Assembly (NCBI GenBank): GCA_016183565.1
Contig: JACPEJ010000004.1
Coordinates: 41,178-105,177, forward strand
Direction of reading: 5' to 3'
Origin: Candidatus Blackburnbacteria bacterium
GTDB lineage: Bacteria; Patescibacteriota; Microgenomatia; UBA8517; UBA10165
Length of the DNA stretch: 64,000 bases
Shown: positions 15,842 to 62,100 of the stretch, piece by piece
Layout of the letters: the number at the start of each line of letters is the position of its first letter
Numbering within the stretch: position 1 is the stretch's first letter
Program-made: the position numbers and the translations under genes
Notes under the pieces: model-generated
What the model was told of the DNA's origin: nothing
Database searches by the model: none
The model's input: the letters and a program-made list of their open reading frames with translations, nothing else

Positions 15842-17446
15842 CTAGTTGGGTAATTTCTTCTCCTCTTTCCCTCCAAAGATATCCTCTGCGACGCGGATGA
15901 TGTCTTCTTCGACTTCTTCAGTTAGGTTCGCAATATCTATGGCTCGTTTTTTTGAGGAAGATAAAAAGCAAACGATATGAATTTCTTTGCCAAAAACTTC
16001 TTGCGCGATTTTTTCAACCAGGCTACGATACGGGTCTTTTTCTATTCTTTCTTTGTGGAATTGGTAAAAAACTTCAAGCATTAAGTTGTTTCCATTAAGT
16101 CCTTGTGGTTTGGTTGCGCGCAGCAAGGCTTCAATCGAATGGTTTGTCTTTTTTGCCTGCTCCATAAGTTTTTTCCATTGTTCGTCGAGATTTAAAGTAG
16201 ACAGTGGAATTTTACCCCCTACGTCCTTCAAACTCTCTAAGGAGGGTGAGCTTGCCGACGAACGCTCGTCGCGATTGTCTGAGGCAGGCTCGAGCGGACG
16301 ACGTCGCCGCGCAGACGGCGCAGAGTCCCGAGAGCCAGTACCTTCTGAGGTAGCCGAGTTGAGCGACAAGTGAGTCGGTAACAAACCCTCCGACCCTCCG
16401 ACCCACTCAATCACAGCCATCTCCAAAGGCAGTTGTGGAATAACTGCAGAGGGTATGTCTAAAGCTGCTTTTGAGAAAAGTTCAATTGCAAATTTAACTT
16501 TTTCCACTCCTTCGAGGTCTTTTGCTTTCAGATCGTTCCTGCCGTCATTGGTAAATTCCGAAAGTAGAATATTTCTTAAAAGCCCGACTAGTTGGGATGT
16601 ATAAAGCCGGAGGTTAACTCCGTCTTTGACAATTATGTCTATTTCTTCTAAAGCTTCCTTTGTTTTTCCTTCACTCAGCGCGAGAAGGAGGTTCTCCGGG
16701 GTGCGGGAAACAGCAATGCTGTTTTTTACATCCTCCACTGTTATTTTCTTTTTTCCAAGAGATAATTGTTCTAAAATTTTATGTGCTTCTCTGAAACTTC
16801 CGTCAACTATTTTGACAATCTCGGATAGTGCATCATCGCTAACATTTATACCCTCACCTTCAACAACCTTTTTTAAAGAGGCAACAATCTCTAGAGAGTC
16901 AGCTTTCCTAAAGTTTATTATGGTACACCTGGAACGAATTGTGTCGGGAAGTTTTTCGGGGGCGGTTGTTGCAAGGATGAACAGGACGTGGTCAGGCGGT
17001 TCCTCTAGGGTTTTAAGAAGAGCGTTTGCGGCTTCTAGTGTTAACATGTGGGCTTCGTCGATGATGTAGACTTTTTTACTTGCCCCGGCTGGAGCAAGCT
17101 TTACTGCGTCACGCAGGGCTCGTACGTCATCAACCCCTCTGTGGCTTGCTGCGTCAATTTCCAGTACGTCCAGGCTTGCCCCACGAACGATTGCCTCACA
17201 CTGCGCACACTTGTTACAAGGCTCTATATTAGCGTTTTTCCCCTTTTCCCTTTTCCCTTTTCCTTCACAGTTGACGGCTTTCGCTAATATGCGAGCTGCT
17301 GAGGTTTTGCCACTACCCCTGGGGCCGGCAAAAAGAAAAGCATGGGGAATGTTACTACTACCAAGGATATTTTTTAGCTGTTCCCGGACTTCCGGAAGAT
17401 CAAGTTCTGAGATTGTTTTGGGACGGTATTTTAAATAAAAAGTCAT
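15842..17446 (-). CDS. dnaX: DNA polymerase III subunit gamma/tau
   Basis: Walker A GPRGSGKTSAARILAKAVNC; zinc module CNKCAQCEAI; AAA+ sensor motifs. Confidence 0.9.
   Translation of the reverse strand: MTFYLKYRPKTISELDLPEVREQLKNILGSSNIPHAFLFAGPRGSGKTSAARILAKAVNCEGKGKREKGKNANIEPCNKCAQCEAIVRGASLDVLEIDAASHRGVDDVRALRDAVKLAPAGASKKVYIIDEAHMLTLEAANALLKTLEEPPDHVLFILATTAPEKLPDTIRSRCTIINFRKADSLEIVASLKKVVEGEGINVSDDALSEIVKIVDGSFREAHKILEQLSLGKKKITVEDVKNSIAVSRTPENLLLALSEGKTKEALEEIDIIVKDGVNLRLYTSQLVGLLRNILLSEFTNDGRNDLKAKDLEGVEKVKFAIELFSKAALDIPSAVIPQLPLEMAVIEWVGGSEGLLPTHLSLNSATSEGTGSRDSAPSARRRRPLEPASDNRDERSSASSPSLESLKDVGGKIPLSTLNLDEQWKKLMEQAKKTNHSIEALLRATKPQGLNGNNLMLEVFYQFHKERIEKDPYRSLVEKIAQEVFGKEIHIVCFLSSSKKRAIDIANLTEEVEEDIIRVAEDIFGGKEEKKLPN
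17239..17265. repeat. tandem heptamer (ccctttt)x3 repeat inside dnaX
   Basis: ccccttttcccttttcccttttcc; encodes in-frame EGKGKREKGKN between the Walker A and zinc module. Confidence 0.6.
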
Positions 17447-17575
17447 TAGTTAAAATTTTCAATTTTTAATTTTTAATTTTCAATCAAATCTCAATGAACA
17501 AATTTTCAATGTTTTAAACATTTAAGAATTGGAAATTCATTGAAAATTGAGACTTGAAAATTGTAAATTTCCTAC
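17441..17575. repeat. AT-rich palindromic intergenic element (aattttcaat/attgaaaatt family)
   Basis: about 130 bp large imperfect inverted repeat built from aattttcaat units. Confidence 0.7.
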
Positions 17576-17958
17576 TCATGGTGTATTCCCAACAAATGCA
17601 TTACTCCGTGCTCGGCAAGTTCACCTAACACATCATCCATCATTTTGTTTTTCTTTATAGCAATTTTTCTTGCTTCAGGATAACATATTACAACATCTCC
17701 CAGGGGTAGTTTATCAGGTGGAACCACAAATTCCCCATCTTCCGATGCAGAGAAAGACAGGACCTCGTGAACTGGATCGCTTTTATTTTCCTTTAGATAC
17801 TTTTGTCCAAGTTCACGCATTTTCCGCTCGCCTACTAGAGCAATACTAACCTCTGCGTCTTTAACACCTCTTAAAGAGAGTACATCTTCAATTTTGTGTT
17901 TCAAGGCCTTTGTGTCTAAAGGATAACGTGACTGGCGAGTGATGAAAATGCGAAGCAT
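17572..17958 (-). CDS. ybeY: endoribonuclease YbeY (rRNA maturation)
   Basis: metal-binding motif HGVMHLLGIHHE near the C-terminus; 128 aa. Confidence 0.8.
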   Translation of the reverse strand: MLRIFITRQSRYPLDTKALKHKIEDVLSLRGVKDAEVSIALVGERKMRELGQKYLKENKSDPVHEVLSFSASEDGEFVVPPDKLPLGDVVICYPEARKIAIKKNKMMDDVLGELAEHGVMHLLGIHHE

Positions 17959-18001
17959 TTTTTTGAAATCTTAAATTCGAAATCCTAAATCCGAAACAAA
18001 T

Positions 18002-18445
18002 TCAACCATGTAGTTTTTCCCTCACGATTCTAGAAACCACATCGCCACTTGCAGCACCTTTAATTTTCCCCATCACAACTCCCATCACTTTTCCAAAATC
18101 CCCTGGACTTGAAGCGCCAGTTTCTGAGATCACCTGGTTAACAATATTTCCTATTTCTTCGTCTAACATCTGAGCAGGCAAAAATTCTTTTAAGATTTCC
18201 TCTTCTTTTGCTTCTTTTTGGGCCGCTTCTTCTCTGCCACCTTTTTTATAGGCCTCAGTTGCCTCTTCTCTTTGCTTTATCTGTCTTCTTACAATTGCCA
18301 ACTCTTCATCTTCTGTAAGACCCCGTTGTTTTGCTATTTCTTCGTTGTGGATTGCGCTTGAAAGAAGTCGTAGTGTTGAAACGCACAGTGTATCTCCGCT
18401 TTTTAGGGCATCTTGGATTTGAGTAGTAAGATTCTCTACTATCAT
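18002..18445 (-). CDS. GatB/YqeY-domain protein
   Basis: YqeY-like helical domain (NLTTQIQDALKSGD...LRLLSSAI...GKVMGVVMGKIKGAASGDVVSRIVREKL). Confidence 0.65.
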   Translation of the reverse strand: MIVENLTTQIQDALKSGDTLCVSTLRLLSSAIHNEEIAKQRGLTEDEELAIVRRQIKQREEATEAYKKGGREEAAQKEAKEEEILKEFLPAQMLDEEIGNIVNQVISETGASSPGDFGKVMGVVMGKIKGAASGDVVSRIVREKLHG

Positions 18446-18807
18446 GGAAACTCCTTTTTTACTTCCATTTCTGGTGTTTCTTGCCAACCACCAACTATGT
18501 GATAGTGAGTATGGAATACTGACTGTCCTGCAGCTTCACCTGATGCAGTGAGAACGCGAAAGGCGTCCCCGATATTTAGTTTTTTGGCAACTTGGGCTGC
18601 CACCAGTTGACACCTACCAAGAACCTCCACGTCATCTTCTGAGACCTCCACAAGCCGTGGAATGTGCTTTTTTGGAATTACAAGCACATGAATTGGAGCT
18701 TTAGGATTTATGTCGTGGAAAGCAAAAATTTCGTCATCTTCATACTCCTTTTTTGAAGGAATTTCTCCACTAGCAATTTTGCAAAAAACACAGTTTTGAG
18801 GTTCCAC
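18442..18807 (-). CDS. HIT-family (histidine triad) nucleotide hydrolase
   Basis: CVFCKI N-terminus and histidine triad HTHYHIVGG. Confidence 0.8.
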   Translation of the reverse strand: MEPQNCVFCKIASGEIPSKKEYEDDEIFAFHDINPKAPIHVLVIPKKHIPRLVEVSEDDVEVLGRCQLVAAQVAKKLNIGDAFRVLTASGEAAGQSVFHTHYHIVGGWQETPEMEVKKEFP

Positions 18808-25683: not shown

Positions 25684-25790
25684 AATTTTCAATTTACAAT
25701 TTTTAATTTTCAATCAAGTATCATTCATTCAATTTTCAATGAAAATTAATCAATGAAAATTGTAAATTAAAAACTGATCATTTTTTCAGG
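25684..25790. repeat. AT-rich palindromic intergenic element
   Basis: aattttcaatttacaatttttaattttcaat ... aattttcaatgaaaattaatcaatgaaaattg between rpsB and tsf. Confidence 0.7.
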
Positions 25791-26491
25791 GTTGCAGTCT
25801 TTTGTTCCTCGAACTTTTTCTTTCCTTCCTCAATCGCTTTCCCAACAAAATCAAGTATGAGCGATATTGCTTTCACTGCGTCATCGTTTGCTGGGATAGG
25901 ATAGTTGACCAGGTCGGGATTTGCGTTAGTGTCAACTATTGCAACCATTGGTACACCAAGTTGATTGGCTTCTTTAACGACACCGTCTTCTTTGTGAGTA
26001 TCAACTACAAAAATCATATCAGGAATGTTTTTTAAATTCACTAGTCCTCCGAAGAGTCTTTCCAGACGTCCGATTTCTCTATCTATCAAGAGCTTTTCTT
26101 TCTTGGTGTAACCTTTGAATCCTCCGGATTCTCTTTTTTCTCTCAAGTCACTTAACTTTTTGACAGATCGGCGCATTTGCTCAAAATTGGTTAGTGTTCC
26201 TCCAAGCCAACGATGGGTAACATATGGCATTCCTGTTTTTTTAGCTAAATCTTGAATTAAATCTTTGGCTTGTCTTTTTGTGCCAACTAAAAGGATTGCT
26301 CCGCCTTTTGAAACTGTGTCTTTTATAGCTTTAGCAGCTTCCAAAAGAGCATCGCGAGTTTTTGCAAGGTCAAAAATATGCACACCTTCGCGGCTGCCAT
26401 AGATAAATGGGGCCATTTGAGGATCCCAACGACGGGTCTGGTGTCCAAAATGCACACCAGCCTCCAATAATTCTTCTAAAGTTATGTCCAT
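25778..26491 (-). CDS. rpsB: 30S ribosomal protein S2
   Basis: EAGVHFGHQTRRWDP S2 signature; start at MDITLEEL with AAGGAG RBS 4 nt upstream. Confidence 0.9.
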   Translation of the reverse strand: MDITLEELLEAGVHFGHQTRRWDPQMAPFIYGSREGVHIFDLAKTRDALLEAAKAIKDTVSKGGAILLVGTKRQAKDLIQDLAKKTGMPYVTHRWLGGTLTNFEQMRRSVKKLSDLREKRESGGFKGYTKKEKLLIDREIGRLERLFGGLVNLKNIPDMIFVVDTHKEDGVVKEANQLGVPMVAIVDTNANPDLVNYPIPANDDAVKAISLILDFVGKAIEEGKKKFEEQKTATLKK

Positions 26492-26602
26492 TGACTCCTT
26501 AAACCACCATCCGACAGAAGCTTCAGGAGTCCAGCCGGATGTGAGTGATGTCCTGTATTTTACCAGAAACAAATTTGCCGCGCAAACCTTATTGAAGTAT
26601 CT

Positions 26603-26634
26603 ATAGATATTTGGAATATTAATATCTATTTTGT
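26603..26634. repeat. 32-bp direct repeat, copy 1 (ends in ttgaaa)
   Basis: ggaatattaatatctattttgtcttcttgaaa; same at 27992. Confidence 0.6.
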
Positions 26635-26883
26635 CTTCTTGAAAAACCAGCAGTATATTTTCTCTCTTCGAAAGGAAGACAATTGGTTGCAAATTTATAC
26701 CTTGCTCACTATCCCAATAAAGTTAAGGAACTTTTGCAAGATTTTAAAGATCATCTTAATGATGGAATAATACTTGAGGATAACAAGATTCAATTCTTTA
26801 CCCCAGCATTTTATGTGGTATTAGAAGAACTTATTCCCCTCTTAAAATTAAAACCTGATGCATATATGTATTATGAAGCTCCG

Positions 26884-29336: not shown

Positions 29337-30665
29337 TTATGGTACTGGGAATTTTTGACACAAGTCTTTTACTTTTCCGGCAATCTCTTGCAGCACCTTA
29401 TTTCCTTTTATCCGTACTTTAAACTCTTTTAAGAAAGCTTGTTTTCCGTCTTTGTCTTCGGGCAATTTTTCATTCTCAACCTCCCCGACCGCCTTAATAA
29501 TCCACTCTGCGATTTTGGTCATTTCTGTTTCTCCCATGCCGCGGGTTGTGACAGCAGGGGTTCCCAAGCGGATACCCGAGGGATAGAATGGCGAAGTATC
29601 ACCTGGAATACTATTTTTGTTACACACAATTCTTGCTTTTTCCAGAGCTTCGGCAACAACATTTCCAGAAAGCCCGTTGGGTCTCAAGTCCACAAGCATC
29701 AGGTGGCTTTCTGTCCCACCGCCGATCAGTTTTAGCCTTGCAAGGGGACGCCTTGCAAGGCTAGAGCCCTCCTGCAGCGCTTGAGCTAGAACTTTGGCAT
29801 TGGCAACCACTTGCTTAGCATATTTTTTGAATTCCGGAGTGTCTGCTTCAAAAAGAGCCTGGGCGATACCGGCGGTTGTGTTGTTATGGGGTCCACCTTG
29901 CAACCCAGGAAATACTGCTCTATCTATGTCTTCCCCCAACTTCCCATACTTCCCCAATCCCTTCTCAGTTACCATAATCATCGCACCCCTTGGCCCCCGT
30001 AATGTTTTATGCGTCGTAGTCGTGACAATATGTGCATACGGAAAAGGAGAAGGATAAACGTTACCAATAATAAGTCCGACAACATGAGCAATATCGGCAA
30101 CTAAGTAGGCACCAACTGAATCGGCAATTTCGCCAAAAAGCTTCCAGTCTAGAGCAAGAGGGTAAGCAGTAGTGCCAATAATTATCACTCTTGGTTTTTC
30201 TGCCTTCGCAAGAGCTTGAACCTTTTTGTAATCTATGGTTCCATCTCCCTCGACACCAAATTGCACAGAACGAAAATACTTTCCAGAAAAAGTGATCTTC
30301 GGTTGGCCGTGAGTAAGATGGCCACCTGAAGCAAGTTCCATGCCCATGATAGTGTCACCCGGCTCACAGAGAGCGAATAAAACCGCTGAGTTTGCAGGAC
30401 TTCCGGAATAAGGTTGGACATTAGCATGAGGAACGTTAAAAAGTTTTTTTGCCCGTTCTATTGCTAAACGTTCCACTTCATCAACGAGATCATTTCCTTG
30501 GTAGTATCGCCTCCCTGGATAACCTTCAGAGTATTTATTGGAAAGCACACTACCAACTGCCTCTCGGACAGCTCTTGAAGCATAGTTTTCGGAAGGAATT
30601 AGGGTTAGTGTATTCTCCTGCCGTTTTTCTTCTCGAGTTATAAGTTCCTGAAGATGTTTGTCCAC
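29337..30665 (-). CDS. glyA: serine hydroxymethyltransferase
   Basis: LTLIPSENYASRAVREAVGSVLSNKYSEGYPGRRYYQGN; PLP-lysine region TTTTHKTLRGPRGA. Confidence 0.9.
   Translation of the reverse strand: MDKHLQELITREEKRQENTLTLIPSENYASRAVREAVGSVLSNKYSEGYPGRRYYQGNDLVDEVERLAIERAKKLFNVPHANVQPYSGSPANSAVLFALCEPGDTIMGMELASGGHLTHGQPKITFSGKYFRSVQFGVEGDGTIDYKKVQALAKAEKPRVIIIGTTAYPLALDWKLFGEIADSVGAYLVADIAHVVGLIIGNVYPSPFPYAHIVTTTTHKTLRGPRGAMIMVTEKGLGKYGKLGEDIDRAVFPGLQGGPHNNTTAGIAQALFEADTPEFKKYAKQVVANAKVLAQALQEGSSLARRPLARLKLIGGGTESHLMLVDLRPNGLSGNVVAEALEKARIVCNKNSIPGDTSPFYPSGIRLGTPAVTTRGMGETEMTKIAEWIIKAVGEVENEKLPEDKDGKQAFLKEFKVRIKGNKVLQEIAGKVKDLCQKFPVP
29734..29764. repeat. palindromic (ccttgcaagg)x2 element inside glyA
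   Basis: agccttgcaaggggacgccttgcaaggctag; encodes an in-frame [10 protein letters not shown] insert. Confidence 0.7.
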
Positions 30666-30701
30666 AAGTGTATTTTAACACTCAGAGAAGGTGAGACAAA
30701 A

Positions 30702-36502: not shown

Positions 36503-37390
36503 CTAAAATCCATACGCAGACATTGGGGAATTGCCGATCCTGCTCCTTCTCATTGCGTAAGGAAGTTTTGCGCATTGGTAGGAGCCTGGGATAGTTGTGA
36601 ATGCAGTTTTTATGCCAAGTTCTTTGAAAACTTCCTCACTGGCTTTAGTTTGTGTCCCATAAGGATAAGCGAACGCAGTGACTGGCCCTAGTCCCCGATC
36701 CTCAAGCTGCTCTTGGGCGGTTCTCACTTCATACTTGAGCTTTTCTTCATCCGCACTGCTTAGGTTCTTGTGTGACCACGTGTGGTTTGCGAACGTAATA
36801 AGTCCTGAACCTGCCATTTCTCGAATTTGGTCCCAAGTTAGGTAGTCGGCGCCACCAACAAGTCCGGTTACTATAAAGACTGTTGCAGCTAAGTTGTTTT
36901 TAACAAGTTCAGGGTAGGCGTAGGTATAAAAGTCTCTATAGCCGTCGTCGAAAGTTATAAGTATTGGTTTCCCCGGAAGTGTTCCTGTTAAACCTGCCAA
37001 AAGCTGGTCTGGGGTTAGGGTTGTGTATCCTTTTCCTGCAAGGTAGGCCATTTGGTTTGTAAAGGAGTCATTGGTAACGCTAATATTCTTTTGGTTTTTG
37101 GCCATGGCTTCTTCTAGTGGCTGGATATGATGGTAAAGGATAGCCGGGATGTTTTTGCAAGGACCATACACTTTCGGGTCAGGAAGAGGGATGGGGGTTG
37201 GGGTGGGAGTAGGAGACACAGGTACAGACACAGGCACAGATACAGGGGTAGGAGTTATTAACAGTTCCGCCTTTTTACTATTTTCTGTATCTATATCTGT
37301 ATCTGTGTCTCTGAGGAGGGCCGATCCAGAAATAATGAGTAAACCACCTAACCCCAGGACTATTAAACCAATTAGTCTTTTCTTTCCCAC
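36503..37390 (-). CDS. polysaccharide deacetylase (NodB homology) with membrane anchor and Pro/Thr linker
   Basis: ILITFDDGYRDFYTYAYPELVKNNLAATVFIVTG NodB motif; N-terminal TM; PTPVSVPVSVPVSPTPTPTPIP linker. Confidence 0.75.
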   Translation of the reverse strand: MGKKRLIGLIVLGLGGLLIISGSALLRDTDTDIDTENSKKAELLITPTPVSVPVSVPVSPTPTPTPIPLPDPKVYGPCKNIPAILYHHIQPLEEAMAKNQKNISVTNDSFTNQMAYLAGKGYTTLTPDQLLAGLTGTLPGKPILITFDDGYRDFYTYAYPELVKNNLAATVFIVTGLVGGADYLTWDQIREMAGSGLITFANHTWSHKNLSSADEEKLKYEVRTAQEQLEDRGLGPVTAFAYPYGTQTKASEEVFKELGIKTAFTTIPGSYQCAKLPYAMRRSRIGNSPMSAYGF

Positions 37391-37408
37391 AAGGCAAAGT
37401 TTAACATC

Positions 37409-40198: not shown

Positions 40199-40263
40199 AT
40201 AAGTCTAAGTCTAAGTTCAAGTCTAGGAAGGAAAACTCCTAAACTTAGACTTAGACTGTCATC

Positions 40264-41373: not shown

Positions 41374-41619
41374 ACTTTGACATTACCACAATCTGCTGTT
41401 GGTGGTATACTGAGTTTGTGGGGCTGAAGGTATCTTTTACAGAGAACCAGCTTAAGATGCTTGCGGTTGTTGCAGCAGATGCTGGCCAGGTGTTCTTTGC
41501 GATAACAGTGGTTCCTTTTTTAATCAGTCCCAGCCAGACGAGTCTGTTGGCATTCTTTTTTGGGATATCACTCACATTAGCTTGTTGGGTAGCCAGCTTA
41601 ATATTAACAAAGTAAAATC

Positions 41620-45190: not shown

Positions 45191-45191
45191 G

Positions 45192-45626
45192 CTACACCTT
45201 ATATCCAACCACATGGTGTCTTGAGATGTATTTAAAAAACAAAAAGGAGAGAAAACCAATAGTCAAAGTAGACCAAAAGTAGAACTCTCCAAAGACAACT
45301 TTTGCCCGTAAAAGATTTGACAAGACAACTAGACTTCCTAAAAAAAATGGGTTTTTGGAAAAGAACTCTTTTTTGGTCGATGTCCAAAACAGTAAAACCC
45401 CAAAAAATAAAATCGGGGTTAGTCCTAATTTTGTCCCTTGGATAAGATCAAAAGTAAACGAAAGCCCGAACACAAGAAAAAGAGTTTTGCTGGACACAAA
45501 TTCTTTACTGTGGTTTATAGAAAGAAAGATTAATACCAGCAAAAATCCTTCCAAAAATACTGGAGGCAGAAGAGGGCCTTGAACAAGGGAAAAGATTGTG
45601 GCTAATAACAGAACTATGTGTGAACT
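45192..45626 (-). CDS. mreD: rod shape-determining protein MreD
   Basis: small polytopic membrane protein placed between mreC and the PBP2 gene. Confidence 0.55.
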   Translation of the reverse strand, partial: SSHIVLLLATIFSLVQGPLLPPVFLEGFLLVLIFLSINHSKEFVSSKTLFLVFGLSFTFDLIQGTKLGLTPILFFGVLLFWTSTKKEFFSKNPFFLGSLVVLSNLLRAKVVFGEFYFWSTLTIGFLSFLFFKYISRHHVVGYKV

Positions 45627-45628
45627 CA

Positions 45629-45765
45629 TAAATTTAAAATTTTCATTTTTCAATTTACGCGCATCGCCTTGTTACACAAGTCGGCAATCAAGTATCAATT
45701 ACTAAATTTTCAATGAAAATTCAATAAAAATTGTAAATTAAAAATTAAAAATTACTTAGTATTTT
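45629..45765. repeat. AT-rich palindromic intergenic element
   Basis: aatttaaaattttcatttttcaattt ... aaattttcaatgaaaattcaataaaaattgtaaattaaaaattaaaaatt. Confidence 0.65.
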
Positions 45766-46565
45766 GTCACAAAGAAAACTGTGTCAAGTGCATTTACGTT
45801 TGTTGCCAATTCCATCTCCGCTTGCTGCCAAGCACCGTCTTTTACTGGCAAAACGCGTGTTATAACCCCGAGCAAAAGCCCAGCGGGAAATGCACCGTCT
45901 TCGTTAGTTAAAATTAAATCCCCTTTTTTTAGTGTTTCTTTTGTTAAAACTTGGTCAAGAATAACTTTTCCTCCACGACCCAAGGCAAGACCTACGGCCG
46001 TTAGTTGCCCGTTGTTTTTATCACGGACAACAACAGGAATTTTAGAAAGATCGGATGTGGGTAAGATAATTTTAATTTTGCGTCCTACTTTCTCCTCTGT
46101 AAATCCTACAAAAACTCCACCTTGCTTTACCTTGTCGTCTGTTGTAATAACAGCGGTATTGGAAGAGGGTGTGTAATCACTTGTTACTTGTAAAATATCC
46201 CCGGATGAGGAAACAACATTAGCAAGCTCAAACATCCAAGAAGGTGGCAAACTTGCTCCTAGGAGTTTTCTTAATCGCGCATTTTCTTTTTCAAGACTCC
46301 CAAGCTTCGCAAGCTGGGAAGATAGAAACGCATTCCTTACCTCAGCCTCCTCAGCTTTTTTCTCCAACTCACCTGATGAAACGAGAAAGACATTCGGAGC
46401 AATAGATTTCTTGGTTTTAAACAAGCGTGTATCGAGGGGAATTGTAAGTGCTTGAACTAAATTATGGATAGGGGTAAGAAATCCTCGTAGATCTAAGAAA
46501 AAAAGGAGGCTTGAACAAACGAGGTACAAGATGAGTGTTCGCCCAGATTTCTCAAGACCAAGCAT
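45756..46565 (-). CDS. mreC: rod shape-determining protein MreC
   Basis: N-terminal TM, coiled coil (LEKENARLRKLLG), C-terminal beta domains. Confidence 0.75.
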   Translation of the reverse strand: MLGLEKSGRTLILYLVCSSLLFFLDLRGFLTPIHNLVQALTIPLDTRLFKTKKSIAPNVFLVSSGELEKKAEEAEVRNAFLSSQLAKLGSLEKENARLRKLLGASLPPSWMFELANVVSSSGDILQVTSDYTPSSNTAVITTDDKVKQGGVFVGFTEEKVGRKIKIILPTSDLSKIPVVVRDKNNGQLTAVGLALGRGGKVILDQVLTKETLKKGDLILTNEDGAFPAGLLLGVITRVLPVKDGAWQQAEMELATNVNALDTVFFVTKY

Positions 46566-46605
46566 GTTTGCATTTTACCATGTAAATAACATGGTAATAT
46601 GAAGT

Positions 46606-55588: not shown

Positions 55589-55762
55589 CTATTTCAGCTT
55601 CTGAGTTTCGCGGTGCTCCGTGTGTTGGCGGCACTTTTTGCAGAATTTGTTAAGTGTTAGTTTCCCTTCTGTATTGGTTTTGTTCTTTTCGGTTATATAG
55701 TTTGCAGTCTTGCAAACCGAACACACGAGCCCGAACAGTTGTCTTGCTCCTTTTTTAGCCAT
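55589..55762 (-). CDS. rpmG: 50S ribosomal protein L33
   Basis: hand translation MAKKGARQLFGLVCSVCKTANYITEKNKTNTEGKLTLNKFCKKCRQHTEHRETQKLK; two CxxC pairs of the L33 zinc ribbon. Confidence 0.7.
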   Translation of the reverse strand: MAKKGARQLFGLVCSVCKTANYITEKNKTNTEGKLTLNKFCKKCRQHTEHRETQKLK

Positions 55763-55786
55763 CTTTTACTCCTTTCTACTTGCTGA

Positions 55787-55857
55787 GCCTGGAGGGAGGA
55801 TTGAACTCCCGGCCTCTTTCTTACCATGAAAGCGTTCTCCCACTGAACTATCCAGGC
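55787..55857 (-). tRNA. tRNA-Thr (anticodon GGU)
   Basis: cloverleaf read by hand: acceptor gcctgga/tccaggc; D-arm gttc-agtggga-gaac; anticodon stem ctttc/gaaag with loop atGGTaa; T-arm gggag-ttcaatc-ctccc. Confidence 0.75.
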
Positions 55858-55906
55858 AATTCTTTTGATTTTGCCAAAATTGCGAGTCAATTTTTAATTC
55901 GATGAG

Positions 55907-55990
55907 TGCTGGGAGAGGGATTCGAACCCCCGAAGGCATATGCCACCTGATTTACAGTCAGGCTGGTTTGGCCGCTTCCAATATCCCAGC
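55907..55990 (-). tRNA. tRNA-Tyr (anticodon GUA), type II with long variable arm
   Basis: acceptor gctggga/tcccagc; anticodon stem cctga/tcagg with loop ctGTAaa; variable stem ggcat/atgcc; T-loop ttcgaat. Confidence 0.7.
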
Positions 55991-56785
55991 ATTATTTGTT
56001 AAATTATCTTTAAAACTTAAAAATCTTCCGATGTGTCTTTGGTTACTAAATCGTATTTCGCTGTAAAACTTATTTATATTGTCTCTTCTTGTCAAAAATA
56101 TACTGTAACTAGAAATTCTGGACGGTTTGAAACCAAGTGTTTCCAGTATCCTCCGAGTAGATTTTAACAAATTCTCTGACCGATTGCGGAAAGACATTTG
56201 CATTCCACCCGAAGCTAAAAGATAGACAGACCCATCTGTATCAAAAAATCCTCTTAAAAAAGCCTTCATATACTCTTTGTTTGTCCAAATCCAAGCAGGA
56301 ACATCCACCTGCCCTTTAACCTTATTTGGCATTAAACCCATCTCGAGCAACCATCGGACTATTTTCGTAGATCCGACATAGATAACTTGATAACCTTTTT
56401 TGGTATATATTGCTCGAGGATGGCACTCAAATAATTTCAATATTAACTTTTGTATGAAAGTACAATATTGTTGCTCCTTGTTTCCCAAGTGAACAAGAAC
56501 TTGAGTAGGTGAAATGTGCCCATCTCCAAGCATTATCCCAATAAATTCTGCTAGCTCTGGGGAATATCTAGGCAGCTTAACGGTTAGATTGCTAGAGTTA
56601 TTAAACCCGGGCTTTTTATATCTTTGAGTCGGTATTCGCAAACGAACCAAGCGATCATAAATTGTAGTTTCCGCTAAACCGATCTCTTTGCCAATTTCAC
56701 CTATTGCTTTATTCTTTTTAACGTACAGGTCAACAAGTTCTTTTCGATGCTCATCTTCTTGTTGTTTTGTCCAACGCTTTGCCAT
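55958..56785 (-). CDS. LAGLIDADG-family homing endonuclease (double-motif) with N-terminal HTH
   Basis: two LAGLIDADG motifs (FIGIMLGDGHI and LRGFFDTDGSV); N-terminal HTH (IGKEIGLAETTIYDRL); the last 11 codons overlap the 5' part of tRNA-Tyr. Confidence 0.75.
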   Translation of the reverse strand: MAKRWTKQQEDEHRKELVDLYVKKNKAIGEIGKEIGLAETTIYDRLVRLRIPTQRYKKPGFNNSSNLTVKLPRYSPELAEFIGIMLGDGHISPTQVLVHLGNKEQQYCTFIQKLILKLFECHPRAIYTKKGYQVIYVGSTKIVRWLLEMGLMPNKVKGQVDVPAWIWTNKEYMKAFLRGFFDTDGSVYLLASGGMQMSFRNRSENLLKSTRRILETLGFKPSRISSYSIFLTRRDNINKFYSEIRFSNQRHIGRFLSFKDNLTNNAGILEAAKPA

Positions 56786-56789
56786 TCTG

Positions 56790-56873
56790 AGCCGGAGGAG
56801 GGATTCGAACCCACGAAAACCTTGCGGTCCTTCGCTTTACAAAAGCGCTGCTCTACCACTGAGCTACTCCGGC
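56790..56873 (-). tRNA. tRNA-Thr (anticodon UGU)-like with an unusually long (about 16 nt) variable region
   Basis: acceptor gccggag/ctccggc; D-arm tagctcagtggtagagc; anticodon arm cagcgc-tTTGTaa-agcg aligns with bacterial tRNA-Thr; an extra accgcaaggtt mini-hairpin lies in the variable loop; T-loop ttcgaat. Confidence 0.55.
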
Positions 56874-56965
56874 TTGCGTAACGTAGATTATATCAAACTT
56901 TGGGCTCAAAGGGAATCTCTCGAGAGTGGAAAGAATATGAGGTTTGAAGTATAATTATGTCAGAT

Positions 56966-57036
56966 AGGGCTGTGGTGAAATGGCATCACTGCTGTCTCCA
57001 AAACAGCCATTCCAGGTTCGAATCCTGGCAGCCCTG
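56966..57036 (+). tRNA. tRNA-Trp (anticodon CCA)
   Basis: acceptor agggctg/cagccct; D-arm gtga-aatggca-tcac; anticodon stem gctgt/acagc with loop ctCCAaa; T-arm ccagg-ttcgaat-cctgg. Confidence 0.8.
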
Positions 57037-57280
57037 CATTCCAGGTGCCTTCGGAATTATACTTCGCTTAAAGCTGTGCCACCTGTAAAGTAGAAATGCG
57101 AGGTTAAGGGTGTGTGTCGAGAAAACTCCTCAAGAATAATTTTTTGATAAGGAAAATTCGGCCTTTTAGGGTCTTTTTGAGTTCCTCTATTTGGTAATCC
57201 CAAATCAAGCTCACAAGTTATTGTACATCAAATCGACCACTCAAAGCAAAGAGGGTGACCCTGTAATTACTTGACATTCA

Positions 57281-57309
57281 GTGAACTTTATAGTATACTA
57301 TTGGCTTAG
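57281..57309 (+). promoter_or_regulatory. sigma-70 consensus-like promoter TTGACA-17-TATACT
   Basis: read directly; about 105 bp upstream of the GTG start at 57415, which is preceded by an aaggag RBS. Confidence 0.45.
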
Positions 57310-57414
57310 AGGATGAGATAGTTGGCTGTCCGCAAACCAATCAATTCTCAACTTCTCACTACCCGCAAGGGAGTGAAACTAGCACTTTAAATTGCGGAAG
57401 AAGGAGAACAAGAG

Positions 57415-58101
57415 GTGAAGCTTTTCTGGGCAGTCCTGGTATCCGTTTCGTTGGTGGTCACGACCTTCGGCTCAGCCTCCGCTGACAACAGCAAGGCGAC
57501 CCCGATAGTGCCGCGTGTCGAGCTTTCCATGCCGGTAAGCGTACAGCCCGGCCAGACCGTTGAGGTCCCCGTCGTTGTCCGCACCGCTGGCGTGGCCGTG
57601 GATGTGGGCGAGTTCCTACTTGTCTACCCTGTCGACGCGATCGAGTCCGTCACTTTCAAAGCTGCGGATGGTATCACTACCATCACACAGCCTCGTCGCG
57701 AGGACGAGGGCCTTGGCAAGTTCTACCTGGCCTATGGGGTGTTGGGAGGCACGCTGAAGGATGGTCAAAGGGTGGCAACGATCAAGGTCGCACTCAAGAA
57801 CAGCCTTCCGGCCACAACCATCACACTGCAGCTTCAGCGGAACAACCTGGCCCACGCCGGCATGCCTATTTCGCAAGCCCCTGACACGACGTATACCATC
57901 AGTGTGAGGCAGCTCCTGCTGGGTGATGCGAACGGCGACGGCGTCGTGGACCTTATTGACTTTTCGATCATGCTCGGGTCTTTCGGCGTCTGCAAGGGGC
58001 AGACCGCCTACAATCCGCAGGCCGACTTCAGTCGGAGCGGGTGCGTCAACACCGAAGACTTCTCGCTCTTGAGGAGCAATTTCGGCCGTAAGCAGGCGTA
58101 A
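57415..58101 (+). CDS. secreted cohesin-like / dockerin-domain protein (GC-rich island)
   Basis: signal peptide; beta-rich middle region; C-terminal dockerin-type Ca-binding repeats (LGDANGDGVVDLIDFSIML ... ADFSRSGCVNTEDFSLLRSNFG); about 60% GC. Confidence 0.55.
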   Translation: MKLFWAVLVSVSLVVTTFGSASADNSKATPIVPRVELSMPVSVQPGQTVEVPVVVRTAGVAVDVGEFLLVYPVDAIESVTFKAADGITTITQPRREDEGLGKFYLAYGVLGGTLKDGQRVATIKVALKNSLPATTITLQLQRNNLAHAGMPISQAPDTTYTISVRQLLLGDANGDGVVDLIDFSIMLGSFGVCKGQTAYNPQADFSRSGCVNTEDFSLLRSNFGRKQA

Positions 58102-58404
58102 AGCCCTTCTTCCACAAGTATACAAAGGCACCGTGTTCAGATACCAGTCGGTATCTGATTGTGACAATGACGTCACCACGGTGCCTTTTCTTTTGGTTCT
58201 TTTCTTTACTAACACAAAACAATTCCTTAAGTGAATTCTCAAAATTACACTACACTCCTACGTAGGAGTGTAGTGTGTTCAATTAAATATATGAATAAAC
58301 TTATATGTTACAGGTGATATTTTGTGATACGTTATATCTCCTTGCCTCGCTTGACAAATAAAAGCACAAATGTATACTTAAATATACATTCAAGTGCATA
58401 TATT

Positions 58405-58701
58405 ATGAACTACATGACTACAACTGAATTACGAACAAAGACAAAGGAACTTATCCAAGCTCTCAAGGATGGTGAGACTGTGGAGTTGATTCATAGATCC
58501 AAAATCATTGGAGAGTTTAGGCCAGCTGAAGAAGAAGCGCCAGTAATACGAGACCTAGAGAAGTTTGAAAAATTCCTTGCTGGCATAGATCCTGGTGAAG
58601 ACACAACCTACAGAGAAAGAGAAAGACGCTATAGAAAGCATCTTGAGGGAAAGTATGGCAAGGGTCTTTCTGGACACCAACATATTTATAGACTACGTTG
58701 A
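58405..58701 (+). CDS. Phd/YefM-type antitoxin
   Basis: MTTTELRTKTKELIQALKDGETVELIHRSKIIGEF matches the Phd/YefM N-terminal fold; overlaps the downstream PIN gene. Confidence 0.5.
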   Translation: MNYMTTTELRTKTKELIQALKDGETVELIHRSKIIGEFRPAEEEAPVIRDLEKFEKFLAGIDPGEDTTYRERERRYRKHLEGKYGKGLSGHQHIYRLR

Positions 58702-59029
58702 GCGTAAACCAAGCGCAGACCGAGCAGAGCTTGTATCACACAAGGTCTTTGTATCAGTACTCTCAGTCCACATTTTGGCCTACATATATAAGTACAAAGT
58801 TCCCACACCAAAACTCAAAGACTTGGAAAAGAATTTTACGCTCCTACCGTTCAATAGAATAATATTTGAGAAATCACGTCTAGGGCCAACAACCGATTTT
58901 GAAGATAATGTACAGTTAAATTCTGCTGTCGAAGCCGATTGTGATTTTTTCTTAACACTTGACCGCCAGCTCTTAAAACTGAAGTTTTTTGGCAAAACAA
59001 GGGTGGTTTCCTCTCTGAGCGCAGATTGA
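58655..59029 (+). CDS. PIN-domain toxin (VapC-like)
   Basis: MARVFLDTNIFIDYVER ... acidic PIN residues; about 125 aa. Confidence 0.6.
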   Translation: MARVFLDTNIFIDYVERKPSADRAELVSHKVFVSVLSVHILAYIYKYKVPTPKLKDLEKNFTLLPFNRIIFEKSRLGPTTDFEDNVQLNSAVEADCDFFLTLDRQLLKLKFFGKTRVVSSLSAD

Positions 59030-59044
59030 AACTTGCTACTACAT

Positions 59045-59827
59045 TCATTTAATACAAAAGAAGCTCCCGATTGGGGAAAGTTCGGCAAGAGAAATCTCCT
59101 GAGAGTAAAATGCTGAGGCTGTTCCCCCGTCAAGATTTAGCGCGTCTTTAAACTTTATTCCAGATTTTTCTTCAAACATTTTTAAAACAGAAGGCAGACC
59201 AGCAAGGTTTGGTCCTATAAAAAGAGATTTCGGATTAAAAAGAACAAGGAAGATAGCTTTCCCCTCTTCGCTAGTTCCAACAACAATTCGTCTTTCTCGT
59301 TGATCATTTTTAAGTTTCAAGGATTGTGCACTATTGTTTTTTATCAAAATCGGTCCTGCTTGAACTGCAAACCGAAAGTCTTTTTGTGTCATATCTTCGG
59401 ATACGAACACCACACCCTCACTGTCGATCCCAAAAACTCCGTTAAATAAAGCGTTCTTTGCCCATTTCTTCAGCATTTCTCCCTCTGTCACAAAAAGTCC
59501 TATGTGTTCTCCTTCTTTTGTATAAAAACCTCCGCTTACAATGTTTTTGCATCCTTTTTCTTGCATTAAAGCTTTTGCGGTTTTTTTCTCGTCAAGATTG
59601 GAGAAAAGAAAAATCTCATTTGGGTTCGGAACTTCAAACCAAACAATTCTTAGAGTTGAATCTAAGTAGTTTAGATCAATAATGTTTTTGTTTTTTGTTT
59701 TGATATTACTTTCCACCTCACCTTGTTTTGGTAATTCCGTGTTTGTTTTTTCCAACCACAACCAGAGGTAGCCTAAAATTCCTACACTAATTATCATTCC
59801 TAGAGCCAAGAGATGAACCCTTTTCAT
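59045..59827 (-). CDS. phosphodiester glycosidase-family (DUF2233/NAGPA-like) membrane-anchored protein
   Basis: N-terminal TM; ...IVSGGFY...NLDGGTASAF pattern; family assignment tentative. Confidence 0.45.
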   Translation of the reverse strand: MKRVHLLALGMIISVGILGYLWLWLEKTNTELPKQGEVESNIKTKNKNIIDLNYLDSTLRIVWFEVPNPNEIFLFSNLDEKKTAKALMQEKGCKNIVSGGFYTKEGEHIGLFVTEGEMLKKWAKNALFNGVFGIDSEGVVFVSEDMTQKDFRFAVQAGPILIKNNSAQSLKLKNDQRERRIVVGTSEEGKAIFLVLFNPKSLFIGPNLAGLPSVLKMFEEKSGIKFKDALNLDGGTASAFYSQEISLAELSPIGSFFCIK

Positions 59828-59869
59828 GCAATATACTAGTATATACCCACACCGGTTGGCTGGACGTGG

Positions 59870-60925
59870 ATGGTAAAATGGAGCGTGAGCAAAATTACCA
59901 CACTGACACTTTTCATTTTTGCAATTGTTATTTCTGGAACATTTGGTTGGTGGGTTGGCAAAAACCAAGAAAAAACAACCAGAGCGCTACCTAAAACAAT
60001 TACCGAAAGGTTAAGACCTCTTGAGAAATACTCGATAGAAAATCTTTCAAAAAGAACAATTACTCCATCAGAGATCAAAATTGAAAAAGAATTGCAAGCC
60101 AAGACAACTGCTGTCAAAAACCCAATTTTCAAAAGCTACCTTTTTTCTTATATATCAGAGGGTAAAAAGGTAAGCGGGCAAGTTAATATTCCCTCAGGAT
60201 CGGGGTCATTTCCAGCTGTTGTGATGTACAGGGGATATATTGACCAGAATGAGTACACGACTGGTATGGGGACAAGGAATACTGCCTCTGTTTTGGCACA
60301 AAACGGGTTTGTTACTTTTGCGCCTGATTTTTTGGGGTATGGGGAGTCGGATCCTATTAATCCTGATGTTATTCCGGCACGTTTTGAAACTTACACAACT
60401 GCCTTGGACATGCTTTCTGCTGTCGAAAATGGAAAGTTCGTTTCTGACAATCCTAACATTGAAAATTTCAAATTAAAAATTAAAAATTTATTCTTGTGGG
60501 GTCATTCAAATGGCGGACATATTGCGCTTGCGGTTTTGGAGATAACCCAAAAAGAAATTCCAACTGTTCTTTGGGCACCTGTTACTAAACCTTTCCCCTA
60601 CTCTATTCTCTATTTTACAGATGAATCGGAAGATCATGGCAAATTCTTAAGACGCCAGATTGCTAATTTTGAGGAAGATTATGACATTAATCTTTATTCG
60701 ATTGATACATACTTTGATCGTATTAATGCGCCAATAGAACTTCACCAAGGAACTTTGGACGTGGCTGTCCCCAAACGCTGGTCGGACAGTTTTGTAAATA
60801 CTTTAAAAAAGAAGGAGAAAAAGATAACTTATTTCGTTTATCCGGGCGCGGATCATGACCTTAAACCTTCTTGGGATATTATAGTAAACCGCACTTTAGC
60901 TTTTTACAATAAACACCTTAAATAA
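59870..60925 (+). CDS. alpha/beta-hydrolase (prolyl oligopeptidase/dienelactone hydrolase-like) with N-terminal membrane anchor
   Basis: nucleophile elbow GHSNGG; C-terminal GADHDL catalytic His region. Confidence 0.7.
   Translation: MVKWSVSKITTLTLFIFAIVISGTFGWWVGKNQEKTTRALPKTITERLRPLEKYSIENLSKRTITPSEIKIEKELQAKTTAVKNPIFKSYLFSYISEGKKVSGQVNIPSGSGSFPAVVMYRGYIDQNEYTTGMGTRNTASVLAQNGFVTFAPDFLGYGESDPINPDVIPARFETYTTALDMLSAVENGKFVSDNPNIENFKLKIKNLFLWGHSNGGHIALAVLEITQKEIPTVLWAPVTKPFPYSILYFTDESEDHGKFLRRQIANFEEDYDINLYSIDTYFDRINAPIELHQGTLDVAVPKRWSDSFVNTLKKKEKKITYFVYPGADHDLKPSWDIIVNRTLAFYNKHLK
60462..60492. repeat. AT-rich palindromic element fragment inside hydrolase CDS
   Basis: attgaaaatttcaaattaaaaattaaaaattta; translated in-frame as NIENFKLKIKNLF. 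Confidence 0.55.
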
Positions 60926-60982
60926 CTCTTTGTTCTTGCTATTGACATACACTGTTTGTAAAAGCTAAACTCAAGGAGAATA

Positions 60983-61510
60983 ATGGGTGTTAGTCTTGCA
61001 GAACTAGCTCGCCCTTCAGAACTTACAGGATCTCAGACACCTGAGGTTCTTCAACCCCCAAAGGTGATCATATTTGACTGCGAACAACTTCTTGAAGTAC
61101 TTGAATCATTTCCCCATCCACGAGTGGACCCAGATTTTCAAAGACAGTTAGAGAAGCTAAGAGTTGTAACAGAAAGGGCTTTTGTTCCTGAGTCTCTAGT
61201 TGCTACAGTAAGAGTTGTAGGTTTAGCAAGAGTTGATGATGGTTTTTTGCAAGTGAGCCATGATTATTTTACGATGGGAACTTCTTATAGAAGATTGGGC
61301 AATCCCCGGATCATACAAGTCCAAGGGGATACTGTACGGGGCATAGGGTTTGATTACGAGGAGATGGTTTATCGCTTGTATCAGATTGAGGAGGATCAAG
61401 TAATTTTGGTTGTTAATCGACCACCGGCAGATTCGTTTATACAAGATCCAACAGGCGGACAGAGATATGTTTTAAATCCTCTCCGTTGTCATATCCCCCC
61501 AGTCCTCTGA
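60983..61510 (+). CDS. hypothetical protein
   Basis: 175-aa ORF; no recognised motif. Confidence 0.4.
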   Translation: MGVSLAELARPSELTGSQTPEVLQPPKVIIFDCEQLLEVLESFPHPRVDPDFQRQLEKLRVVTERAFVPESLVATVRVVGLARVDDGFLQVSHDYFTMGTSYRRLGNPRIIQVQGDTVRGIGFDYEEMVYRLYQIEEDQVILVVNRPPADSFIQDPTGGQRYVLNPLRCHIPPVL

Positions 61511-61588
61511 CATATCTTGTTTATTTTTGGTATACTTATGGCAGAAGGTATACTTTCCCAAACATGGAAGGGAGGCGATATATGACAT

Positions 61589-61789
61589 ATGGTAGTTGTC
61601 AAAGCAAAACCTGGCGAGTCAATGGATCGTCTTATTGCGCGTTTTCGAAAAAAAATCTTGCACTCTGGAGTTCTTTTGGAATACAAAGAGCGCGAACGCC
61701 ATAAGACAGACGCACAACGCCGCAAGGAACATAAATATAGAATTAAACATCTTCGGGAGATAGAGAAGAAGTATGGGCAGGATAGGTAA
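61589..61789 (+). CDS. rpsU: 30S ribosomal protein S21
   Basis: MVVVKAKPGESMDRLIARFRKKILHSGVLLEYKERERHKTDAQRRK follows the S21 pattern; ggagg RBS upstream. Confidence 0.7.
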   Translation: MVVVKAKPGESMDRLIARFRKKILHSGVLLEYKERERHKTDAQRRKEHKYRIKHLREIEKKYGQDR

Positions 61790-62020
61790 GAACTTTTCTT
61801 ACCCGTCCATACTTAGGATGTTTTTTGGCAAGTTTTCGCATTGGGTTATCTCTATAAACTTTGGCGATTACAGACGCTGCGGCAGTGGAGATGGATTTTC
61901 GTCCCCTTTTACTATTGCCAACTGGTTCTTTCTTTTGATCCCATGAGTGTACGGCACCTTCGGTAATTGGCAATCTAGGCGTAGGCATGATAGAATAAGA
62001 ACCTGATAGGAATCAGGAAT

Positions 62021-62100
62021 TATCTAATTTTCAATTTACAATTTTCAATGAAAATTTAGAGATTAAAAATTGATTAAAAATTAAAAATTTCAAATTGTAT
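62021..62100. repeat. AT-rich palindromic intergenic element upstream of secE
   Basis: taattttcaatttacaattttcaatgaaaatttagagattaaaaattgattaaaaattaaaaatttcaaattg. Confidence 0.65.

Follow-up and report, generated by a model that had tools for sequence, protein, structure and literature searches.

According to Mrazek 2007, as cited in PMC4679880, heptanucleotides are the commonest long simple repeats in many bacteria, and Mori et al. (PMC6344855) rank tandem heptamers first in abundance among the periodic DNA of prokaryotic intergenic regions, with 'no clue about function'. One heptamer, TAACTGA, occurs just upstream of start codons that lack a Shine–Dalgarno sequence in Beggiatoaceae, Cyanobacteria and Bacteroidetes, and a translational role has been proposed for it (MacGregor 2015, PMC4679880). 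Here we describe repeats of this kind in a 64-kb window (the whole stretch of DNA that was analysed) of Candidatus Blackburnbacteria, a member of the Microgenomates in the Candidate Phyla Radiation (CPR), together with a handful of relatives. The window has a G+C content of 41.8%, and at five of its intergenic sites it carries palindromic elements of 80–130 bp, 75–84% AT, in which tandem arrays of AATTTTC-type heptamers face each other as inverted pairs. These AATTTTC elements are one local form of the widespread bacterial heptamer repeats. We lean, with a little better than even confidence, towards the view that they resemble repetitive extragenic palindromic (REP) sequences and miniature inverted-repeat transposable elements (MITEs), that is, that they are palindromes of inverted heptanucleotide arrays arising at the level of the DNA and tolerated in transcribed spacers and protein loops. 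Of the available labels, 'MITE/REP-like dispersed palindromic element' suits them best, although inverted heptanucleotide tandem arrays, a known class, is the better description.

Comparison with the described systems shows partial likeness to each. With the long simple sequence repeats and the cyanobacterial short tandemly repeated repetitive sequences, the window elements share short 7-bp tandem arrays, intergenic enrichment and a scattered phylogeny; they differ in being inverted pairs that form palindromes of 80–130 bp, with a shared non-repeat core, a stop-to-start placement and a copy number that is invariant in the sampled populations. With the TAACTGA heptamers they share proximity to start codons, an association with ribosomal-protein operons, occasional copies within coding sequences and spread across phyla, although the unit is a different one and the TAACTGA sets are direct (169 direct versus 1 indirect), whereas each window array has an inverted partner that makes the element palindromic (PMC4679880). 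Like REPs, bacterial interspersed mosaic elements and REPINs, they are dispersed imperfect palindromes in transcribed DNA between co-transcribed genes. REPs, in the accounts given in PMC3733652 and PMC2817692, are 20–40 bp long and GC-rich, with a GTAG or CGTC head and an associated RAYT gene. By contrast, the window elements measure 80–130 bp, are ~80% AT and heptamer-built and have no GTAG or CGTC head, and no RAYT gene was seen in the window. The 7-bp tracts of Haemophilus influenzae hmw1A and hmw2A, as portrayed in PMC8262952 and PMC12721329, lie between promoter and start codon, are phase-variable and differ in copy number between strains; the 2025 hmw study presents 5′-untranslated-region structure and RNase III as mattering there (PMC12721329). 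Heptamer tracts near the start codon are the common feature; the hmw tracts are contingency loci at surface adhesins, whereas those of the window do not vary between samples and stand at operons of core housekeeping genes.

Two further groups of elements are similar in architecture or location. The Correia/NEMIS elements of Neisseria and the enterobacterial ERIC/RU MITEs are, like the window elements, inverted-repeat elements (~100–150 bp) that are co-transcribed and form long hairpins. Correia hairpins are substrates of RNase III and can contain promoters. The window elements have no sequence relation to either family, no TA duplication or integration host factor (IHF) site was identified in them, and their arms are heptamer arrays rather than unique terminal inverted repeats. 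Rickettsia palindromic elements are selfish DNA inside protein-coding genes. In the window, too, repeat-derived sequence is found in frame at positions of insertion relative to homologues, although the coding sequences hold only arrays of 21–60 nt and not the whole palindrome. The literature search found no paper with the motif or describing such CPR elements. What differs here from the described systems is that heptamer arrays occur as inverted pairs, forming dispersed homologous palindromes across the CPR that are invariant in the samples.

The first-pass annotation, made from the window's sequence, had reported five intergenic copies, and all five were confirmed where it placed them; Pfam assignments of the flanking genes (YbeY|DnaX, S2|EF-Ts, MreC|MreD, MreB and SecE) agree with the gene sets that it named. 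Gene starts used here are based on open reading frames (ORFs), except in cases that were checked individually. Three copies, all on the minus strand, fill the spacer between a stop codon and the next start: ybeY–dnaX (17447–17571), rpsB–tsf (25684–25777) and mreC–mreD (45630–45755). The other two lie in divergent spacers, one abutting the mreB start codon (49609–49690, minus strand) and the other upstream of secE (62015–62104, plus strand), where the hairpin is the weakest of the five. An extended −10-like sequence, TGCTATACT, was read just upstream of the mreB copy on the mreB strand, and a consensus scan placed a promoter-like TTGGCA-18-TAGAAT with TG at 61967–61996, upstream of the secE copy. 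Because promoter-like sites stand upstream of each of these elements, the mreB and secE copies are probably the 5′ leaders of their genes.

Read on the sense strand of the downstream gene, the arm order is identical in all five copies. A 5′ array of AATTTTC, AATTTAC or AATTTTT units leads into a central palindrome, AATTTTCA-N-TGAAAATT; a short spacer, often with GATACTTGATTG, follows, and then a 3′ array of GAAAATT, GTAAATT or AAAAATT units that ends 0–15 nt ahead of the ATG (0, 0, 7, 8 and 15 nt across the five copies). A typical arm is a tandem array of ~30 bp, or ~4.3 units of 7 bp, as in the ybeY–dnaX copy, with its AATTTTC-type left arm at 17454–17484 and its GAAAATT-type right arm at 17539–17569. 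In the rpsB–tsf copy, the stem begins 4 nt past the TGA stop codon and finishes 2 nt ahead of the ATG. No Shine–Dalgarno (GGAGG-like) sequence precedes the downstream start at any of the five copies. For tsf, the ATG at 25683, which immediately follows the repeat, is the true start and yields a 150-amino-acid EF-Ts identical to the NCBI protein; the upstream Met codons that the repeat had been thought to supply to this gene come down to a TTG.

Each copy had also been described as a large imperfect hairpin. Inverted-repeat arms of 19–57 nt, 74–86% complementary, were found in all five, and four of the copies fold better as RNA than their shuffled counterparts (z = −1.9 for ybeY|dnaX, −4.0 for rpsB|tsf, −3.4 for mreC|mreD and −2.9 for mreB), whereas the secE copy folds no better than shuffles (z = +0.6). 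The non-repeat core GATACTTGATTG is common to the copies, and their pairwise identity is 75–88%, a value that low complexity inflates. Over ~91 nt, the tsf and mreD copies align at 86%, setting aside a 27-nt GC-rich insert (45658–45684) that is unique to the mreD copy. Judged from these alignments, the copies are homologous beyond the heptamer repeats.

The 10-mer AATTTTCAAT is the commonest in the window, with 17 copies over both strands. When one mismatch was allowed, 60 matches were counted against an expectation of 18.8 ± 4.4, a number that none of 100 dinucleotide shuffles reached; 37 of these matches lie inside the five elements, whose combined length is 541 bp (0.85% of the window). The suggestion that the motif might simply be a product of AT-rich composition therefore fails. 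An intergenic preference is evident in that 41 of the 60 matches fall in non-coding DNA, which accounts for ~17% of the window. The building unit, however, is not the 10-mer originally proposed but a tandem heptamer with a period of 7. A strict detector (at least three units) returned 10 period-7 arrays and 0–1 arrays at each other period from 4 to 12, with a Markov expectation of 0; Tandem Repeats Finder gave ~25 period-7 rows in the window, and 7 was the best autocorrelation period in 8 of the 17 co-directional spacers of 30–200 nt. Longer-than-chance 7-nt arrays with an intergenic preference are what characterizes heptanucleotide tandem repeats, and both traits are found here.

The strain of the window is also present in Logan assemblies of runs SRR12113383–SRR12113430. 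Several contigs of these independent short-read assemblies end or switch context exactly within heptamer arrays. In one of them, the 3′ arm of the tsf copy is joined to a different left half, the identical stretch being at least 31 nt long, which indicates that the genome has at least one more copy at another place. Contigs that span the rpsB|tsf, ybeY|dnaX and mreC|mreD elements are 100% identical to those of the window in every sample (at least five sequencing runs); the ybeY–dnaX and mreC–mreD copies were each recovered in three independent sample assemblies, and the rpsB–tsf copy in Logan contig L216. Copy-number variation, which had been put forward as a check, was not seen: no difference in unit number between samples was found in this comparison of consensus assemblies of one population. 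Given the contig breaks, the extra copy and the complete identity across samples, the AATTTTC elements are real, multi-copy and without visible variation in unit number.

Arrays were also found within coding sequences. In the α/β-hydrolase gene, GAAAATT/AAAAATT units at 60458–60492 (plus strand) are translated in frame as NIENFKLKIKN, and the in-frame fragment NIENFKLKIKNLF to which the first-pass annotation had drawn attention is real. This array coincides with a 5-amino-acid gap in the closest solved homologue, a protein distant enough to make the coincidence weak evidence. The earlier inventory, sound for the intergenic copies and the hydrolase fragment, had missed three arrays in topA, all on the minus strand. 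One consists of (AATTTTC)3 at 39115–39135 together with a 41-nt GC-rich piece; the whole insertion (39074–39135) is translated as KFSIFNFPACYRLAAKQLAGRQF and is absent from Escherichia coli TopA and from a 51%-identical CPR TopA. Another, (AAAATTC)4 at 39872–39902, encodes SSKFKIQNSKF and corresponds to an 8-amino-acid insertion relative to the CPR homologue, and the last, (GTCAAAA)4 at 39571–39600, has a different unit, encodes KSQKSKVK and corresponds to a 4-amino-acid insertion relative to the homologues. In the alignments with the E. coli and CPR proteins, each of the three topA arrays coincides exactly with a gap. The coding arrays sit at gaps in homologues, and the array-making process therefore acts in coding DNA too, with the survivors remaining in tolerant loops. 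The GC-rich, hairpin-forming pieces of the mreD copy (45658–45684, 27 nt) and of topA (39074–39114, 41 nt, translated) share the sequence AGGCGAT(G/A)C, and searches of the window and of all retrieved loci gave no further copy of either insert.

A single AATTTTC family had been envisaged, and it proved to be only one, the commonest, of several families of heptamer arrays in the window. The other period-7 units are GGTTGTA/CTACAAC, AAAAGTT, GGATTTN, CTTCACC, GTCAAAA and GGGAAAA. The rplK–rplA spacer (63499–63577, plus strand) is a stop-to-start hairpin of GTAGGTT/AACCTAC heptamers (z = −4.1); the secE–nusG spacer (62285–62316, plus strand) consists entirely of (AAAAGTT)4 and ends at the nusG ATG; the nusG–rplK spacer (63019–63069, plus strand) holds a (GGTTGTA)4 array; and the yqeY–ybeY spacer (17959–18001, minus strand) is built of GGATTTN heptamers that end 6 nt ahead of the ybeY ATG. 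The spacer before topA (40199–40263) also forms a hairpin (z = −8.3), with the hexamers GTCTAA/TAAGTC and TAGACT/GACTTA on opposite arms, so that period 7 is not a strict requirement for the stop-to-start hairpin theme.

Orthologous loci of relatives were fetched through EF-Ts homologues. At five of them, from Blackburnbacteria and Woesebacteria (L207–L209, L211 and L214), the rpsB|tsf and ybeY|dnaX spacers measure 21–26 bp or the genes overlap. L207 keeps TAATTTTAAATTGAAAATTGAAAATTAATATG before dnaX, which amounts to two GAAAATT units, and a full AATTTTC-type element stands in L207 and L213 at frr|rseP, a junction without a spacer in the window. In four loci (L210, L212, L213 and L215), rpsB|tsf or neighbouring spacers of 83–126 bp form hairpins of other heptamers, the units in these relatives being AAATCC/GGATTT, AAATTCG/CGAATTT and CTAAAT/ATTTAG. 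Filled and empty junctions are too far diverged for side-by-side comparison, with 68% amino acid identity in the flanking Tsf, and the ends of the element merge into AT-rich spacers. Across these relatives, occupancy is lineage-specific and the sequence turns over, yet the theme of a hairpin of short-period arrays recurs. Repeats were also seen within the 3′ end of rpsB in relatives (AAAAATC three times in L207, 9940–9976, and the 9-mer GTAYCAAAG in L121, 800–850), so repeat growth reaches C-terminal coding ends too.

A scan for (AATTTTC)-type arrays, using one genome per species, gave at least 120 loci; among the matches listed, these span many phyla, including genomes of 60–68% G+C. A profile of the whole element, for which E-values are optimistic as for any low-complexity profile, gave near-full-length matches almost only in CPR lineages among the matches listed, namely Curtissbacteria, Moranbacteria, Saccharibacteria, Magasanikbacteria, Gribaldobacteria, Nealsonbacteria and unclassified Patescibacteria. 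About 17 of the 26 near-full-length CPR elements listed are flanked by co-directional genes, and their ends come to within ~11 nt of the stop and start codons. One near-full-length element precedes rpsH (S8) in a Saccharibacterium. Outside the CPR, the matches listed are mostly bare arrays. In Thermoanaerobaculia and other genomes of 58–68% G+C, the order is reversed, with (TTGAAAA)4 followed by local GC-rich sequence and then (TTTTCAA)4 (L059, 497–577 and 1930–2006; L072, 3413–3507; L005, 7135–7258; L086, 1882–1990; L050, 5740–5828; L025, 111–193). This reversed pair lies between convergent genes in 7 of 8 cases among the matches listed, the array overlapping the stop codon; three TTGAAAA units give TGA in all three frames. 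The inner sequence between the reversed arms varies among sites, so that each gene end in these high-GC pairs seems to carry an array of its own. In viral contigs, AATTTTC arrays were present in 40 contigs, and the full-length element in none.

These observations argue for an origin at the level of the DNA, which is supported by the lineage-specific gain, the homology of the copies, the insertions in coding sequences, the multiplicity of heptamer families and the lack of a strand-specific signal. As sequence comparison presents them, the arrays are lineage-specific additions, placed where the closest relatives have spacers of 21–26 bp and in surface loops of proteins, and the elements resemble selfish or mutational DNA that is tolerated more than they do a dedicated regulator. 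The classification as MITE/REP-like holds in part. Terminal inverted repeats, five homologous copies in the window and at least one outside it, a non-coding nature, the shared core and the contig breaks within arrays all fit a MITE, whereas no target-site duplication or defined termini were found at ends that merge into AT-rich spacers, and no transposase among the 20 window proteins scanned with Pfam (from genes that flank or contain arrays). We infer that the elements would arise through expansion of a 7-bp unit, inverted duplication and copying between AT-rich spacers, and that the arrays would persist where they are harmless, as in short spacers between co-transcribed genes and in 5′ leaders. 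Their position and folding suggest that transcripts of the host genes would include them and that they would fold there into a single long AU hairpin, which would begin shortly past the stop codon upstream and end shortly ahead of the following AUG. Stop and start would stay close in this arrangement, so that expression of the operon would be little disturbed, and the downstream gene would be left with an AT-rich leader lacking a Shine–Dalgarno sequence. Any effect on expression (mRNA processing, stability or coupling) would probably be secondary and modest, because close relatives manage without the element.

Several findings weigh against this DNA-level account. That no transposase, target-site duplication or defined termini were found counts among them, as does the invariance of the elements, which are identical in all sampled populations with no variation in copy number. 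The period-7 arrays are of nearly constant length, ~30–31 bp or 4.3–4.4 units, whatever the unit and whether coding or intergenic (for example, 17454–17484, 25684–25714, 39571–39600, 54171–54200 and 63021–63050), whereas free slippage predicts a broad length distribution. Despite differing units, five lineages keep a hairpin at rpsB|tsf, which could reflect selection for structure. Finally, full-length elements with the same arm order and much shared sequence occur in distant CPR classes (Saccharibacteria, Moranbacteria, Magasanikbacteria, Gribaldobacteria and Curtissbacteria); this distribution suggests horizontal spread or a conserved constraint, and neutral local slippage is hard put to explain it.

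The hairpin might instead be a functional intercistronic RNA module, a reading that we regard as doubtful although it is the main alternative. The long AU hairpin would then be a device for processing, coupling or stability, for example a site for RNase III or another RNase, and would either separate the cistrons, leaving a very short leader or none, or hold stop and start codons together for re-initiation. Such a role is consistent with hairpins that span stop to start in three window copies and at many CPR loci, with downstream genes that lack a Shine–Dalgarno sequence, and with the many first genes that look leaderless, having TGnTAnnnT 5–7 nt before the start. It also accords with the retention of the rpsB|tsf hairpin while its units turn over, with the same architecture built from other units at rplK|rplA, and with the CPR-wide conservation of the arm order and of TTGATTGAAAATT. 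However, the same junctions in the closest relatives are 21–26 bp long or consist of overlapping genes, the mreB and secE copies are not intercistronic, and the secE copy folds no better than shuffles. Moreover, RNA-level selection would favour the sense strand, and a sense-strand folding advantage through G–U pairs would therefore be expected. No difference in minimum free energy was found between sense and antisense strands of 28 elements (mean difference −0.75 kcal/mol; 17 versus 11; Wilcoxon P = 0.53), and the count of G–U pairs, 77 versus 56, gives no clear excess. RNAalifold returned 0 consensus pairs and no covariation for 8 aligned copies, in what is a weak test given that the register slips between heptamers. 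A wider form of the idea, in which self-complementary heptamer arrays are a CPR-wide intercistronic device whose stop-to-start hairpin replaces the Shine–Dalgarno spacer, is improbable in our estimation. If it were true, a processing site could release near-leaderless downstream mRNAs in organisms that initiate on leaderless messages, and TTGAAAA, with the opposite arm order in unrelated high-GC phyla, would there act as a three-frame stop with a hairpin at convergent gene ends. Such a pattern would point to a universal machine, for example RNA polymerase, the ribosome or an RNase, that recognizes the heptamer, and bacteria's 'prime-number' heptamer repeats would gain a function.

Recognition of the DNA by a protein, such as the AT-hook or nucleoid protein proposed in the first-pass annotation, is unlikely. 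Here the heptamers would be half-sites for a global regulator or nucleoid protein that polymerizes along inverted arrays in the manner of Fur on its boxes, as the palindromic core AATTTTCA-N-TGAAAATT flanked by further half-sites, the placement at growth-related operons and a spacing in which three heptamers (21 bp) would make two helical turns might suggest. This reading is weakened because unrelated heptamers (GTAGGTT, GGATTT and CTAAAT) and, at topA, hexamers build the same architecture at other junctions; arrays also lie within coding sequences, close relatives lack the elements at these junctions, and no candidate protein was identified. We give marginally less credence still to a promoter module, in which TTGATT-15-TAAATT (or AAAATT) in the 3′ arm, 7–8 nt before the ATG, would drive near-leaderless transcription. 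TTGATTG(A/T)AAATT is the best-conserved submotif across the CPR copies, the 7–8-nt spacing to the ATG was read by eye in the tsf, mreB and secE copies, and the organism seems to use leaderless mRNAs. Nevertheless, the best candidate read by hand, TTGATT-15-TAAATT-7-ATG, has a 15-nt spacer that is poor for σ70, the arrays lack the TGnTAnnnT extended −10 of this genome's clear promoters, and a consensus scan of 45000–64000 found no σ70 promoter aimed downstream in the 3′ arms of the three copies there. The 27-nt insert of the mreD copy would break such a promoter, the mreB and secE copies have better promoter-like sites upstream of them, and the −35-like TTGAAA in the secE copy belongs to a possible promoter of the divergent gene. 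The proposal, made in the first-pass annotation, of a terminator or attenuator common to operon junctions fares worse, and we consider it very unlikely. The elements are indeed large hairpins at gene boundaries, and the mirrored (TTGAAAA)n...(TTTTCAA)n arrays around GC hairpins between convergent genes in high-GC phyla look like a bidirectional terminator, but the arm order in the window is the reverse of that. A search for an intrinsic terminator (GC-rich stem plus U tract) had no match on the three copies within 45000–64000, and the ybeY|dnaX and rpsB|tsf copies were judged terminator-free by reading; every copy has an A-rich 3′ arm followed by the ATG, and termination inside essential operons would presumably be harmful. 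That the elements are an artefact of composition or assembly is close to inconceivable: the sequences are AT-rich and of low complexity, but none of the 100 shuffles reached the observed count, the Markov expectation for period-7 arrays is 0, and independent assemblies from at least five runs agree with 100% identity.

Other known element types were considered and set aside. The arms lack, by reading, the RYYYAAC/GTTRRRY core sites of integron attC, and core housekeeping genes surround them; unlike a DNA-uptake sequence, which would be spread evenly, the motif is concentrated in five loci; and a replication origin is not supported, as no dnaA or dnaN was seen among the annotated window genes. 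An Rfam search at the gathering threshold returned four tRNAs only. Under permissive settings, Gut-1 (RF01706) matched over its full model length at 49629–49696 (plus strand), on the opposite strand of the mreB copy, with 32.8 bits against a gathering threshold of 50; the Gut-1 consensus likewise consists of hairpins separated by repeated (G)UGAAAU.

The window is a compact case in which inverted heptamer arrays form whole intercistronic spacers of rpsB–tsf, nusG–rplK–rplA, mreCD and ybeY–dnaX, and among the relatives these junctions occur in natural 'empty' and 'differently filled' versions. Should the elements be selfish or mutational, very small, gene-dense genomes would still accumulate palindromic DNA, even in the essential topA gene. 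If they are functional, they would represent a new organization of translation or RNA processing in bacteria that seldom rely on the Shine–Dalgarno sequence. Saccharibacteria are now genetically tractable (PMC10633639) and have this element in a ribosomal-protein operon (L018), so its function can be tested.

The window contains a second dispersed repeat, a 31-bp GC-rich palindrome, TAGCCTTGCAAGGGGACGCCTTGCAAGGCTA, with 13 half-site matches against 2.6 expected. Its copies lie at 5752–5782, 15428–15458, 29736–29766, 41037–41067 and 54107–54137, and four of the five are in coding sequence and in frame, encoding ALQGDALQG in a formyltransferase, S(P/L)ARRPLARL in a Cu-ATPase and in the gene at 29337–30665, and SCKGTPCKA in the gene at 40264–41373. 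This palindrome resembles the Rickettsia type of selfish DNA in genes better than the heptamer elements do. The long spacer (15345–15511) upstream of recR (14727–15344, minus strand) holds one CCTCGCAAGG palindrome copy as well, along with a TACAACCCAG 10-mer repeat and a classical-looking GC hairpin with a T tract, cccccgcgaagggggatttttcg.

Inverted GGTTGTA/CTACAAC arrays (7338–7383 and 7752–7787) bracket a gene for a 117-amino-acid '23S rRNA intervening-sequence protein' (PF05635; 7383–7736, minus strand). The whole gene would lie in the loop of a long stem (region 7338–7787), as in rRNA intervening sequences, and the array downstream of it also encodes the N terminus of the Cu-ATPase. An extended −10-like TGnTAnnnT was found 5–7 nt before the start, with no Shine–Dalgarno sequence, at mreC, at the divergent gene at 46606 and at the genes at 52871, 54722, 29337–30665, 36503–37390 and 40264–41373 (for example, 46566–46605, 52850–52870, 54700–54721, 30666–30701, 37391–37408 and 41374–41395). 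This combination suggests that leaderless mRNAs may be widespread in this CPR organism. The 40-bp divergent spacer between mreC and the gene at 46606 is itself a palindrome that bears both TGnTAnnnT sites. Finally, the rpsB ORF (25778–26692) encodes 304 amino acids from its first start codon; because the S2 domain begins at residue 75 and the proteins of relatives are shorter (239–250 amino acids), the real start probably lies ~55–65 codons downstream.

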